Source of the DNA: Shigella phage Sf25
Reading direction: 5' to 3' (one strand)
Sequence record: MF327009
DNA: 64,000 nt
Shown one piece after another: positions 45,075-49,849 of the stretch. The position numbers and the translations under genes were made by a program. Numbering within the stretch: the stretch's first letter is position 1; each line of letters begins with the position of its first letter. The notes beneath the pieces were generated by a model. The model was given only the letters and a program-made list of their open reading frames with translations, did not search any database and was not told the origin of the DNA.

Positions 45075-45078
45075 CAAT

Positions 45079-45108
45079 GGGGACCGAAAGGTCCCCATAT
45101 TTTTATTT
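45079..45108. terminator. hairpin GGGGACC-GAAA-GGTCCCC plus T-run after gene 54
   Basis: stem-loop with GAAA loop followed by TTTTTATTT. Confidence 0.6.
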
Positions 45109-45393
45109 ACGGAATGAAATAAAAGCAGCAACTGAAGCAACTAAACTGTCTTCAATATAAACTTCAATTTTTACCGGAGCTTCTGACTCAAATTTACCTG
45201 TTACTACACCTTGGAAAATGCTTTCAGTCTGCTGTGGCTTTGAAAAATTTTCAGAAGGAAAAATTCCGAACTTTTTATCTGTTCCAAAAATTTTGATAAA
45301 TTCATCATAAACTGCTTCATTAAAAGCGTTATCAGCAGGAATAACGCCTTCAACTACAAGTTCTTGACCTAAAAAGCGTAAAGAAGATTTCAT
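45103..45393 (-). CDS. hypothetical protein downstream of an early promoter
   Basis: 96-aa ORF, start 45393, preceded by the conserved early promoter. Confidence 0.55.
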   Translation of the reverse strand: MKSSLRFLGQELVVEGVIPADNAFNEAVYDEFIKIFGTDKKFGIFPSENFSKPQQTESIFQGVVTGKFESEAPVKIEVYIEDSLVASVAAFISFRK

Positions 45394-45424
45394 TTTGTGT
45401 TCCTCATGTTATGTCAGTAAGATT

Positions 45425-45453
45425 ACTATAACACAACACGAGGGACTTGTAAA
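45425..45453 (-). promoter_or_regulatory. sigma70-like early promoter (-35 TTTACA, 17-nt spacer, extended -10 TGtTATAGT)
   Basis: reverse complement of 45401-45454 reads GTTTACA...TGTTATAGT; the 54-bp element is identical to 61491-61544. Confidence 0.65.
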
Positions 45454-47511
45454 CTACATCTTGAACTTTTTAGACATTCCGTTGATGTTAACCAAAGAAG
45501 CCAAGATTTGAGAAACTTCGTTTTCCTCTTCTTTTGATTCTTCTACGAGGAATTGATTAAACCCAGCCATTGGACGAACTTCGCCAGTTTCCATTAGATG
45601 ATCGCCATCATATACCGATTCTTCTAATTGTTCAGAAGGAGGAACGATTGTGCCTTCGATTAGATACTTGTTATAAGCAGTTTCTTTCATCATGTACGTG
45701 CTTACTTTATTAATCTTCAACAAAATTCCACGCGGTAGAATAACTTCAGCTTCTGATGGAAATCCTGATAAATGACCTGGAACGATAACTTTGATTCGCT
45801 CAGCTCCTTTAATTACCATACCCACGCTAGTTTCAGCATCTTCATTAGCATATGTAGAATGACTACCCATATGCATCAAATCTTCTGCATCAATGGAACC
45901 TTCTCCTTCACCAGAAAATACTGCGCCGGAATCATCTAGAGCCATATAGTTTTTACCATGCTCACCGAAGATATTTGGTTTAAGCGATGTTGATACGAAG
46001 TTCTTGAAATAGAACATTTTATTTTCAATGTTATGACGCAAAGTTTTAAAGGTAACTTCTTGCCCACGATAAAGAGTAGTTCCTGGAGGAAGAACTGAAC
46101 CTTTAGCAAATGCAGAATCCAACGTCTCGATGTGTTTAATAGCTCGTTCCATATATTCTTCACGGGTAGAATCAGGTTTACCTAAAAGGAACGAGTTCAT
46201 TTCAACATATGAATCTGCACAATAATCTTCAATTACATCAGACTCAGCCTGAGTTAATCCTTTTGGAGTTACTTCAGTGCTTGCGTATTCATATGCCTGA
46301 GCGGCAGATTCATTAATCAATTTATAAATGCCATTCATGACAAATTGAATAATAGCTGTCTTTTCATCTGGTGTAGCTTTAGAACCTTTAACTAAATCAT
46401 TGATAATTTTCTTAATAACATCAAAGCTATTAGAAATATTAATGTCAGCAAGATCGCTTAAAATTTTATCAGTTTTATAATCAAAGAATTCTTTATTCTT
46501 TAAATATTCTTGAGAACCTTGATATGTTATATCGCTCTGCAACTTGATAGATGGATCACGTAAACGTGCATGGGCTAATGCAATATGATTTCGGAAACTT
46601 TCTAGTTCATAATCGTTAGATTTAAAACGAGAAGCACTTCTCATACCACCGATAGCTCCTTTGCTAAAGTTTGAACCAATCTGAATAACGCCAGAGTTCA
46701 TCGGACCTTCTGCTTTATATACCGGAACTTTAGATTCAAACTCTTGATATTTCTTAGCAGCGAAGCTATCACCCTGAAGTGAAGCATCAACAGTAGAATA
46801 TTGAGCTTGTGCTGCTAATCGACGACTAATTTTAGTTTTCTGAATAACAGCTTGATCCGTGCGCTTATCATTTTCTAAAGCAATAGAAGCAGCAACAGCG
46901 ACAGCTTTAGGAACAGCATTACCTGTTTTAACGTCTACATAAACATCACCAACCTTTGATTCAACTTTTGTGAATAACTCAGTTGAAATAGGAGGTACAC
47001 CTGGAATGTCTTCTAAATTGGCATTTTTACGGTAAACCATAATATATGCATATTTCTTATCATAGTCCCAGATTTCCTTTAAAAGAACATATCGACCTGC
47101 TCCTTTAGTACGTACTAAACGGTCAGCAATAACTTGCATTTGACGAGCAGCGCCATTTGTTTTACTCTTTAGTACGCGGAATAAGCATGCATCAATTTTA
47201 TACTGTTTCATTGTTTGAAGAGCAGTATCAAAAACAGCATTAATGACGCCAATTGGATTTCCACCCAAGTTTTTAAGCTTGACTAACGATAATTTCTCGT
47301 TGACACCTATCATTACGATATGCATCATTTTGTCGCCTGGCTTAACGTTTTTATTCGTATCACCGCCAGAGGTGTATGTACAAAATCTAAATCCAGGAAG
47401 CACGCTTTCTTCACCGGCTTGAATAGCAAAAATTTGTGGTATTTTATGCTTAGGATTTAAGTTAACAACCGGCGCCGAAGCGCCGTCAAATAATTCTGTA
47501 ATAAGTTCCAT
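45454..47511 (-). CDS. Alt-family ADP-ribosyltransferase paralog
   Basis: 685 aa; N-terminal MELITELFD shared with Alt; ART motifs YRGQ, FVSTSL, SEAEVILPRG. Confidence 0.85.
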   Translation of the reverse strand: MELITELFDGASAPVVNLNPKHKIPQIFAIQAGEESVLPGFRFCTYTSGGDTNKNVKPGDKMMHIVMIGVNEKLSLVKLKNLGGNPIGVINAVFDTALQTMKQYKIDACLFRVLKSKTNGAARQMQVIADRLVRTKGAGRYVLLKEIWDYDKKYAYIMVYRKNANLEDIPGVPPISTELFTKVESKVGDVYVDVKTGNAVPKAVAVAASIALENDKRTDQAVIQKTKISRRLAAQAQYSTVDASLQGDSFAAKKYQEFESKVPVYKAEGPMNSGVIQIGSNFSKGAIGGMRSASRFKSNDYELESFRNHIALAHARLRDPSIKLQSDITYQGSQEYLKNKEFFDYKTDKILSDLADINISNSFDVIKKIINDLVKGSKATPDEKTAIIQFVMNGIYKLINESAAQAYEYASTEVTPKGLTQAESDVIEDYCADSYVEMNSFLLGKPDSTREEYMERAIKHIETLDSAFAKGSVLPPGTTLYRGQEVTFKTLRHNIENKMFYFKNFVSTSLKPNIFGEHGKNYMALDDSGAVFSGEGEGSIDAEDLMHMGSHSTYANEDAETSVGMVIKGAERIKVIVPGHLSGFPSEAEVILPRGILLKINKVSTYMMKETAYNKYLIEGTIVPPSEQLEESVYDGDHLMETGEVRPMAGFNQFLVEESKEEENEVSQILASLVNINGMSKKFKM

Positions 47512-47514
47512 GAT

Positions 47515-49608
47515 TTATCCTTGAACGAACTTGTAAGGCATGTTTGTAATATCTATGCAAGACGCAATAATTCCAAGAGATGATTCTACTTTCTGTTTAA
47601 CGTTTGATGAAACAAATGATGCAAAGTCAACTCTGTCTTCTATTTCAATATCACCTGTCATTGCAACTACTTCGCCGGTTTCCATTAAATGGTCTCCATC
47701 ATAGATTACCGATTCGGTGAGCTCTTCCGTGGTCATAACTTCAGCTTGAATGAGTTTTGTATTATTAGACGTGGTTCCGTCATTATTAGAAGCATCAGTT
47801 ATTTTATTAACTTTGACCATCAATCCGCGCGGTAGAATAACTTCAGCTTCTGTTGCTATTCCGAGACTTCCTGGATATACAACATTAACTTTATGAGCTC
47901 CATCAATTGCCCATCCTATTTGAACTTTAACGTATTCAGGATTTTCTTTATACGCTCTTATTTCGTTTGGATTAATAGTTATTCCTTCTTCATTTTTATC
48001 AACTGTTAATTCATTGCGAGCTTCTGGTTCTAAAAGACCAATACCAGCATGTGTAATTCCAAAACGTCCAAAAATGATAGGAGTTAAAGAAGTAGATACA
48101 AAATTTCTGAAATAGAACACTTTATTTTTAACTAGTGCTTCGTATATAGGAGCAGTCATACTTTGAGCACGATAAACTGTGATGCCTTCCGGTATGCGGT
48201 CACCATTTTCAAAAGCTGAATCTAAGTTATTTATAGCAGATTCAATTTCTTTTTCACTCATTACATCATATCGTTCTGGATTGTAACGACCTAAAAGAAG
48301 ATTATTGATGTCAGTATATCCTGAACCGCAATATTCTCTAATGCCACGCTTTTGTGATGGAGTATATTTAGAACCATCGCGGGCAATAGTAATATCAATC
48401 ATTGGACCAGCACCAATTCCAGAAAAACTGTAAATCATTCGTTTGAGGAATTTAGTTTTTGCTGCGTTCCAGGAATTTTTAGTTATTTCTTCCCAGACTT
48501 CATCTGGTTGTCCTTTACGATTTTTATTATGATTAGCAAGCCATTTATCTTTATAATCTTCAAAGAATTGATTTACAGCTGCTGCGTATTTCTCTAAACA
48601 TTTTATTGAAGTAGTTGGTTCATTTTTAATTGCATTAAAAATTACTTCTTTAATTTTTTCTGAAACTTCACCGACTTGACTCATTGGAAAGAATTTATAA
48701 TCATAGTGAAGTTCATCTGCCGTTCCTTCGGCAATAATTTTTGCTGCCTTAGTTTTAGAAGCTAATGAATTAATTCCAAGCTTCATTTCTTCTGCTTCGG
48801 GAATTAAAGGTGCAGTAGTTGGTTTATTAAAATTAGCTGCTGTAGATTCATACTTCTGGAATAATTCACTTTCAAATCTAGAAGATTCCAATGACTGACT
48901 TTGTGCAATTGCTCTACGGGAAATTTTAACTTTAACGATTACAGCTTGGTCAGAACGTTTATCGTTTTCTTGTGCAATAGATGCTGCAATTGCCTCATTT
49001 TTAGTTACTTGAGCTCCAGTATCTTTATTGATATAAACATCGCCAACTTTCGATTCAACTTTAGTAAAGAGCTCGGTACTAATTTCCGGAACTCCTGGAA
49101 TGTCTTCTAGCGATACATTTTTGCGATGTATAAGAATATATGCATACTTTTTATCATAATCCCAGAGTTCCTTAAGAAGGACGTATCTGCCACCTGAACG
49201 ACTACGGATAAGTCTATCAGCAATAACTTGAATTTGTCGAGCTTGACCAGCGGTTTTAGACTTAAGAATACGAAGCATACAAGCATCAATTTTATACTGA
49301 CGCATTGTTTGCATTGCAACAGTAAAAACTGAATTGATATAATTAATTGGGCTTGGACCAAGACCTTTTAATTTAGCAATTGAACCTTTAGCAGTTAATG
49401 TAAAAGGAACAATATGCATCATTTTATCGCCCATTTTTAAATCGCGATTAGTATCACCTCCAGATGTATAGGTACATAAACGAAAGCCTGGCTGTTCAAT
49501 TGCATCATCAACGTGAACTGAAAAAATTTGCGGTATTTTCTTCTTTGGATTTAAGTTTGTAATCGGAAGAGTAGTATCTTCGTCAAATAATTCTGTAATG
49601 AGTTCCAT
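47515..49608 (-). CDS. alt: Alt ADP-ribosyltransferase (packaged internal head protein)
   Basis: 697 aa from second Met; motifs YRAQ, FVSTSL, TEAEVILPRG; adjacent to gene 30. Confidence 0.85.
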   Translation of the reverse strand: MELITELFDEDTTLPITNLNPKKKIPQIFSVHVDDAIEQPGFRLCTYTSGGDTNRDLKMGDKMMHIVPFTLTAKGSIAKLKGLGPSPINYINSVFTVAMQTMRQYKIDACMLRILKSKTAGQARQIQVIADRLIRSRSGGRYVLLKELWDYDKKYAYILIHRKNVSLEDIPGVPEISTELFTKVESKVGDVYINKDTGAQVTKNEAIAASIAQENDKRSDQAVIVKVKISRRAIAQSQSLESSRFESELFQKYESTAANFNKPTTAPLIPEAEEMKLGINSLASKTKAAKIIAEGTADELHYDYKFFPMSQVGEVSEKIKEVIFNAIKNEPTTSIKCLEKYAAAVNQFFEDYKDKWLANHNKNRKGQPDEVWEEITKNSWNAAKTKFLKRMIYSFSGIGAGPMIDITIARDGSKYTPSQKRGIREYCGSGYTDINNLLLGRYNPERYDVMSEKEIESAINNLDSAFENGDRIPEGITVYRAQSMTAPIYEALVKNKVFYFRNFVSTSLTPIIFGRFGITHAGIGLLEPEARNELTVDKNEEGITINPNEIRAYKENPEYVKVQIGWAIDGAHKVNVVYPGSLGIATEAEVILPRGLMVKVNKITDASNNDGTTSNNTKLIQAEVMTTEELTESVIYDGDHLMETGEVVAMTGDIEIEDRVDFASFVSSNVKQKVESSLGIIASCIDITNMPYKFVQG

Positions 49609-49632
49609 CATATCCTCTCTAGTGTTTATTCT

Positions 49633-49640
49633 ATTTATAA
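49633..49640 (-). promoter_or_regulatory. late promoter TATAAATA (minus strand) upstream of alt
   Basis: reverse complement of TATTTATA, about 22 nt upstream of alt ATG. Confidence 0.55.
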
Positions 49641-49660
49641 AATTAAAGGCCCGAAGGCCT

Positions 49661-49849
49661 TTAATAATCTATTGGTAAGAGAGTACGATATATTTCAAAC
49701 TTTGGACCTTTTTCATAGGCATCAAATGTTTCTGTGAATTTATTATAAGCATATGCATCTATAAATTCAATCATAATTTGTGATACAGAAGTAGAAACAT
49801 CTCCACCTTCTTTTTGAGCCACGACAATTGTTTCTAAGTAAGCTTTCAT
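49661..49849 (-). CDS. hypothetical small protein
   Basis: 62-aa ORF between gene 30 and alt, ATGA overlap with gene 30 stop. Confidence 0.5.
   Translation of the reverse strand: MKAYLETIVVAQKEGGDVSTSVSQIMIEFIDAYAYNKFTETFDAYEKGPKFEIYRTLLPIDY

Follow-up and report, generated by a model that had tools for sequence, protein, structure and literature searches.

Tandem alt genes in Shigella phage Sf25: T4-type alt and the intact form of a gene left in T4 as the fragments alt.-1 and alt.-2

The 64,000-nucleotide stretch of Shigella phage Sf25 (sequence record MF327009), below called the window, carries two adjacent minus-strand genes of the Alt family of phage ADP-ribosyltransferases (ARTs), which we name AltA (47515..49608; 697 amino acids and a stop codon) and AltB (45454..47511; 685 amino acids and a stop codon; 'Alt2' or 'alt.-2' in GenBank records). 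The window derives from a Tequatrovirus (a T-even phage of the T2/RB type), and the locus is the alt locus of T4, AltA being alt itself and AltB the intact form of a gene which in T4 survives only as the fragments alt.-1 and alt.-2. We consider it probable that the two Alt proteins are co-expressed, packaged and injected, with targets that may differ, and that the pair is functional seems almost certain. The pair as such is already known: it is annotated in about 400 phage genomes, its relation to the T4 fragments is recorded in the T4 annotation, and alt duplications in T4-like phages were already listed by Nolan et al. 2006 (PMC1524935). What our analysis adds is the old age of the duplication, the distinction between a genus-bound N-domain and an exchangeable ART cassette, and a copy number that varies from one to three.

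The two proteins are 41% identical over their full length (BLASTP, E 6e-160), are matched end to end by phrog_802, 'Alt-like RNA polymerase ADP-ribosyltransferase' (E 6e-273 for AltA, 1e-256 for AltB), and score 129.8 (AltA) and 72.8 bits (AltB) against PF03496, the ADP-ribosyltransferase exoenzyme family, whose gathering score is 23.4 bits; an NCBIfam search gave no match. The description of the two frames as tandem Alt-type paralogs, given in an earlier note made from the DNA letters, is therefore correct, and the pairwise alignments by which it proposed to check this, between the two frames and with T4 Alt (72% full-length identity for AltA, 42% for AltB), agree with it. The N-terminal MELITELFD that the same note saw in both is likewise there, in AltA when read from the second of two in-frame ATG codons: the open frame has 698 codons from the first ATG (49611) and 697 from the second (49608), and the latter is the likely start, since its spacing from a GAGG Shine-Dalgarno sequence is better and the same start is used in T4. 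The additional ATG at 49609-49611 would give MMELITE..., and some database entries (P0083, EO1) begin there. Only 3 nt separate the AltA stop from the AltB ATG, just upstream of which lies an AAGGA.

Both are Alt-family proteins of full length and of one predicted architecture, namely a six-residue N-propeptide ending in ITE, an alpha/beta N-domain of about 230 residues, a helical centre, an ART domain, an L-x-E motif and a C-propeptide of about 55-65 residues. In AltA the N-domain (amino acids 1-238) occupies 48895..49608, the helical centre (239-415) 48364..48894, the ART domain (416-629) 47722..48363, the cleavage motif LTE-632 47713..47721 and the C-propeptide (633-697) 47518..47712; in AltB the corresponding parts, all likewise on the minus strand, are the N-domain (1-238) at 46798..47511, the helical centre (239-415) at 46267..46797, the ART domain (416-628) at 45628..46266, the motif LEE-631 at 45619..45627 and the C-propeptide (632-685) at 45457..45618. 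Identity between the two proteins is very uneven along this scheme: 62-77% by segment over residues 1-238 (68% overall), about 20% over residues 239-415 and about 35-44% in the ART domain. The earlier note had spoken of variable central regions, and the centre does vary most, but the divergence extends beyond it into the ART domain.

The catalytic motifs that the note had reported as intact, Y-R, STS and E-x-E, could be located in both proteins (Y479-R480, S505-T-S507 and E587-A-E589 in AltA; Y481-R482, S507-T-S509 and E587-A-E589 in AltB), and careful alignment revealed no lost catalytic residue. R482, S507, S509, E587 and E589 of AltB are invariant in an alignment of 15 diverse Alt proteins, and conservation at the equivalent positions is 90% or higher among 58 diverse representatives whose mean identity is 25%. 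The E-x-E form of the R-S-E motif is typical of arginine-specific ADP-ribosyltransferases. For T4 Alt it has been reported that the substitution E577A abolishes ADP-ribosylation activity (PMC11404850). In the numbering of NP_049811 (L001 5455-7503) the T4 motif reads E574-M-E576, a mismatch with that publication which is probably an off-by-one between numbering sources.

A direct search of the full-length AltB sequence against the PDB gave no match at E up to 1, and for this reason a family profile was used for the comparison; it aligns the catalytic arginine and the E-x-E to C3cer (4xsg; YRG, QyE) and the E-x-E to CPILE-a (5h03; EyE). An AlphaFold2 model of AltB (mean pLDDT 73) has an alpha/beta N-domain at residues ~12-220, a confident helical region at ~230-470, an ART domain at ~470-625 and a disordered C-terminus of about 55 residues (629-685). 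Foldseek returned 21 matches of this model in the PDB at E <=1e-3, all of them ART toxins (best E 3e-6), including Vis, Certhrax, CDTa, C3bot, VIP2 and iota toxin Ia, with a target TM-score of about 0.6 for the single-domain ones. AltB is thus predicted by its model to carry the C3/VIP2-type R-S-E ART fold. The C3-like and binary-toxin ARTs (Vis, C3bot, VIP2, iota Ia, CDTa) resemble the Alt pair in fold and catalytic motif, but share only 14-19% sequence identity with it and have no N-domain, propeptides or phage-head delivery.

The N-domain is peculiar to the family. A search of 1.84 billion proteins yielded no more than 69 representative clusters with this domain, which invariably stands at the N-terminus; of its 58 long homologs 56 contain PF03496, with no other Pfam family detected in any of them; PF26846 is listed, as a precomputed annotation, on full-length Alt homologs. 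The idea that the N-domain is a general delivery module for many effector types was rejected on account of these 69 clusters and of PF03496 as the sole Pfam partner. Head-packaged ARTs fused to an N-terminal MuF (phage Mu F-like) domain were reportedly described by Iyer et al. in 2022. Pfam found no MuF domain in AltA, in AltB or in the 58 N-domain homologs scanned, and the Alt N-domain is comparable to the MuF module in the way it works in delivery, but is not a MuF domain.

As to packaging, mass spectrometry of T4 Alt has shown that six N-terminal residues are cut off at ITE-6 and 63 C-terminal ones at LTE-619 (PMC5694885), both cuts being made by the gp21 prohead protease with its L/I-x-E motif (PMC5694885; PMC9026906), and whether the six-residue MELITE propeptide is a capsid-targeting signal of Alt was raised as a question in PMC5694885. 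ITE-6 is present in AltA and AltB alike, the T4 LTE-619 column aligns with LTE-632 of AltA and LEE-631 of AltB, and the glutamates of both sites are kept at 90% or more throughout the family (58 representatives). Upstream, a T4-type late promoter box, TATAAATA, lies on the minus strand at 49632..49639, 31 nt before the AltA ATG; its position is -31 in each of the eight related loci that were checked, as against -36 in T4, and no other late-promoter match before the pair is conserved among those loci, while no conserved late-promoter box was found in front of AltB. The simplest reading is that both genes would be co-transcribed from this box as one late transcript. A second exact TATAAATA lies inside AltA on the same strand (48228..48235, 1373 nt past the ATG) and recurs in most of the related phages checked. 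As an internal late promoter for AltB it was treated as probably a chance occurrence, since it is missing in RB9, G4507 and PST.

With both cleavage sites kept, one late promoter common to the two genes and purifying selection on each, we infer with good support that both proteins are active and packaged. In the scheme that follows, AltA and AltB would be made late and enter the prohead core, and the gp21 prohead protease would trim them at either terminus; injected with the DNA, they would ADP-ribosylate host proteins on arginine as soon as infection begins.

The evidence that AltB is the gene of which T4 keeps a remnant comes from gene order and from alignment. On the minus strand the window has DNA ligase (gene 30), alt.1, AltA, AltB and alt.-3, followed on the other strand by the baseplate genes 54, 48 and 29, and this equals the T4 order 30, alt.1, alt, [alt.-1/alt.-2], alt.-3, 54. 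The T4 proteins alt.-1 (NP_049810) and alt.-2 (NP_049809) align to AltB residues 1-55 and 62-117, and two small families, phrog_23015 and phrog_15247 (61 and 67 positions), match AltB only at residues 1-56 and 62-117, the same stretches, with E values of 2e-40 and 3e-38 as against 1e-21 and 2e-19 for AltA. When the T4 DNA (L001 5030-5460) is aligned with 45380-47520 of the window, it is found to differ by a 1-nt deletion near codon 56 and by a deletion of about 1.7 kb between CTAAARAGT repeats that lie at AltB codon ~116 and just before the AltB stop, after which the alt.-2 frame enters the alt.-3 early promoter and ends in its -10 box. A note in the T4 GenBank record describes alt.-1 and alt.-2 as the first part of alt, duplicated long ago. 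The alignment, the two deletions and the family matches show them to be, more specifically, the wreck of an AltB gene: they share with AltB the genomic position, the gene of origin and a high DNA identity, and differ in that the T4 copy is frameshifted and has lost about 1.7 kb (codons ~117 to the end), whereas the gene of the window is whole.

T4 Alt itself (NP_049811), a head-packaged and injected mono-ADP-ribosyltransferase, modifies Arg265 of the RNA polymerase alpha subunit in an NAD-dependent manner. AltA is its ortholog, with the same locus and late promoter, but has another central and ART cassette; AltB shares with T4 Alt the whole architecture, the R, S-T-S and E-x-E residues and both gp21 cleavage motifs, and is only about 35% identical to it in the ART domain. 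T4 Alt is known from biochemistry, while AltA and AltB of the window are known from sequence.

Selection and age were judged from Nei-Gojobori distances with both genes taken from seven phages. The ratio of non-synonymous to synonymous distances (dN/dS) among orthologs is 0.058 for AltA and 0.041 for AltB, so that both genes are under strong purifying selection. Between AltA and AltB the synonymous distance (dS) is above 1 in every one of ten segments but 521-590, which aligns poorly and gives 0.51; the other nine take in the entire N-domain, with a dN/dS there of 0.1-0.2. Synonymous sites between the two genes are saturated, and their duplication is thus an old one. For the same reason recent gene conversion was rejected as a source of the N-domain likeness, and with dS >1 throughout the N-domain this likeness has to be put down to constraint.

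Compared domain by domain, the genes yield conflicting trees. N-domains group by genome: those of AltA and AltB are 68% identical and those of the three copies in Dhakavirus QL01 67-89% to one another, as against 42-47% across the two genera, and the AltB N-domain, 68% identical to that of AltA, is only 45-46% identical to the JS10/QL01 type. For the helical centre, the ART domain and the C-propeptide, on the contrary, it is effector type that decides the grouping: in the ART domain AltB shares 56-59% identity with the JS10/QL01-3 type and about 35% with AltA, while the AltA ART domain shares 95% protein identity with the first QL01 gene (L015 864-2948), the N-domains of these two being 47% identical. 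The N-domain thus follows the phage genus and the ART cassette an effector type common to several genera. Our interpretation is that the N-domain would have to fit the phage's own head, with the remainder serving as an exchangeable effector.

At the DNA level, AltA residues ~399-638 (window 47695-48414) are 81-92% identical to the first QL01 gene, and third codon positions in this stretch are 52-78% identical (68-78% in five of six 40-codon windows), whereas identity falls to 41-68% in the flanks, where third positions are saturated. Such a high identity of the cassette between saturated flanks suggests that an ART cassette passed from one phage genus to another fairly recently. A similar pattern explains why AltA is only 72% identical to T4 Alt: residues 1-238 are about 100% and residues 633-697 95% identical, so the ends are nearly the same, and what lies between is 32-68% identical, with dS saturated over residues 239-590.

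The AltB of the window is one more instance of a common gene. It is 99.9% identical to a protein of Shigella phage SHBML-50-1, and its orthologs, the Alt2 or Alt-like genes of T2, RB9/RB14/RB32/RB51, the BASEL phages Bas39 and Bas43, Kha5h and others, have 97-99.9% protein identity, the same tandem layout and no substantial difference. The best match of the 5-kb region is Escherichia phage TadeuszReichstein (Bas43; 98.4%), and many other Tequatrovirus genomes reach 97-98%. Of 50,697 phage records, 401 contain AltB-specific DNA, the part missing in T4, at no less than 90% identity, T2, RB9 and RB68 among them; the AltB protein is encoded at an identity of 90% or above in about 401 records (tblastn), and 355 hold the whole AltA and AltB region. 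Record names for AltB are 'Alt-like RNA polymerase ADP-ribosyltransferase', 'alt.-2', 'alt_1' and 'ADP-ribosyltransferase Alt2', the last in MZ501106 and MZ501066. Related loci were taken from GenBank phage records instead of IMG/VR, where a scan for them gave only five, too few for a population analysis.

Other states of the locus were also met. Only the remnant is present in T4, RB55, RB59 and a number of wild isolates; the total of T4-type remnants is a rough estimate of about 100 records, being the 501 with an alt.-1/alt.-2 DNA match minus the 401 with the AltB-specific part, and an 80% coverage criterion failed to separate the remnants because 83% of the alt.-1/alt.-2 query also matches intact AltB. 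Phage G4507 combines a T4-type Alt of 682 amino acids with an intact AltB. Yersinia phage PST (L011 2887-4947) and the protein P0005 represent a single chimeric alt gene, AltA-like up to residue ~110-120 and 97-100% AltB thereafter, which looks like a collapse of the pair into one gene by unequal recombination inside the conserved N-domain. The pair occurs too in a more diverged phage (proteins P0009 and P0018, both listed with a longest contig of 14,051 bp and for that reason taken as one contig). Tandem Alt arrays are found in other Straboviridae (Dhakavirus QL01, 44RR, RB49/JSE, Aeromonas phage 31) at the same locus, from ligase/alt.1 to alt.-3/gene 54, with 3-nt gaps. QL01 has there three tandem genes of 694, 681 and 707 amino acids (L015 864-7124), the first of A-type and the last of B-type, and differs from the window in having three copies instead of two, with N-domains 42-47% and ART cassettes 95% (A-type) and 59% (B-type) identical across the genera; its middle copy has WRGQ in place of YRxQ, and a pattern search did not find the L-x-E...YDGD motif in it. 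The alt locus is therefore an array of one to three genes.

Do the two proteins act on the same host targets? The residues just before E-x-E are G-F-P-S in AltB, G-I-A-T in AltA and P-S-N in T4 Alt, and in C3-like enzymes the region before E-x-E contributes to substrate recognition. From these residues, together with the low identity of the ART domain (about 35%) and of the helical region (about 20%), it is plausible, although weakly inferred, that AltA and AltB have different sets of host targets, in which case a phage with both would inject a broader set of effectors. According to a recent preprint, T4 Alt helps to evade the Mokosh type I system and complements there, which the Alt of Bas37 does not (10.1101/2025.11.20.689424); variants of Alt are accordingly not all equivalent, which makes a divergence of targets plausible. 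We may even suggest, with somewhat less than even confidence, that AltB is a second injected effector with targets unlike those of Alt, for instance a defence system or toxin-antitoxin module which T4 cannot neutralise, and that the alt locus is a one- to three-gene array in which a genus-specific head-packaging N-domain is combined with ART cassettes swapped between genera, like polymorphic toxins.

Against a divergence of targets one may argue that AltB is a redundant dosage copy, packaged and active on the same main targets (for example RNA polymerase alpha Arg265), which adds dose or serves as a backup. The two proteins are indeed alike in architecture, catalytic motifs and processing sites, either gene is lost in nature, and T4 Alt itself is described as having many targets (Depping 2005, as cited in PMC5512222). 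We nevertheless hold redundancy to be unlikely: besides the low identity of the ART domain and helical region, the two lineages have been kept apart for long, as saturated dS shows, and across genera, which would be unexpected for simple redundancy, and T4 Alt and Bas37 Alt are not interchangeable against Mokosh type I.

It could also be supposed that AltB is active but not packaged, and acts late in the infected cell in the manner of ModA and ModB; virion incorporation is indeed deduced from sequence, and T4-type phages also use these two non-packaged ARTs (PMC5512222). ModA and ModB, from phages of this kind, likewise belong to the Alt/VIP2 clade of ARTs (PMC5512222), but are of only ~200 amino acids, have neither the Alt N-domain nor propeptides, are expressed early and are not packaged. 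AltB, on the other hand, keeps the whole Alt-specific N-domain, which occurs almost only on Alt-type ARTs (the 69 representatives and 56 of 58 long homologs mentioned above), keeps both gp21 cleavage motifs, and is apparently expressed only from the late promoter shared with alt, none of these being features of ModA/ModB, so that we think an unpackaged AltB very improbable. Hardly any credence can be given to AltB as a functionless duplicate decaying towards a pseudogene as in T4, even though T4 and its relatives hold only fragments, for about 401 records hold an intact AltB with a protein identity of 90% or above, all its catalytic and cleavage residues are kept, and its dN/dS of 0.041 already contradicts decay.

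Several points weigh against our preferred reading of two co-expressed, packaged and injected proteins with possibly differing targets. The C-terminal motif of AltB, a putative gp21 site, is LEE and not LTE. Synthesis, packaging, cleavage, injection and activity of AltB are all predictions from its sequence, and a literature search found no virion proteomics covering AltB; the virion proteome table of phage fD1 is illegible for g190-g202, and the Yersinia fPS paper contains no proteomics. Different targets are suggested by sequence divergence, and diverged ARTs can share a main target. AltB seems dispensable in at least some settings, as T4, RB55, RB59 and wild isolates keep only the remnant and PST and P0005 have collapsed to one chimera. 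As for other literature, a search for 'Alt2' with ADP-ribosyltransferase and phage found no paper, and PMC12373910 makes no mention of Alt.

The surroundings of the pair contain further signals. Between gene 30 and alt lies alt.1 (49661..49849, minus strand, 62 amino acids; Pfam PF24647 'Phage_blade', E 7.5e-29), and directly after its stop codon the sequence reads as a GC-rich, terminator-like hairpin, AAAGGCC-TTCG-GGCCTTT (49645..49662, minus strand). It would keep early or middle transcription from upstream apart from the late alt operon. In phage G4507 a terminator is annotated at this site, and a simple terminator scan did not flag the hairpin, the T run being short. Downstream of AltB an early-promoter-like site (TTTACA, 17 nt, TATAGT, with an upstream TG; 45425..45453, minus strand) begins right after the AltB stop and would drive alt.-3 (45103..45393, minus strand, 96 amino acids, DUF5498), which is a neighbour and not an Alt paralog. 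A two-way terminator hairpin (45077..45098) lies between alt.-3 on the minus and gene 54 on the plus strand.

As a finding of a genome scan the pair is ordinary, being correctly recognisable and already annotated in public records, and the interest that remains is in AltB itself and in the clear exchange of ART cassettes between phage genera. Alt is the textbook enzyme injected with phage DNA to reprogram the host, yet a second copy of it, missing in the model phage T4, is intact in T2 and, all told, in about four fifths of the close relatives of T4 that have been sequenced. The loss of the gene from the T4 lineage is the reason why AltB is biochemically uncharacterised, and would also be why fifty years of work on T4 missed it. 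The preprint on Mokosh type I (10.1101/2025.11.20.689424) makes a functional divergence among Alt cassettes credible, and if it is true that AltB has targets of its own, a part of the immediate-early takeover or anti-defence repertoire of T-even phages would still be unstudied.

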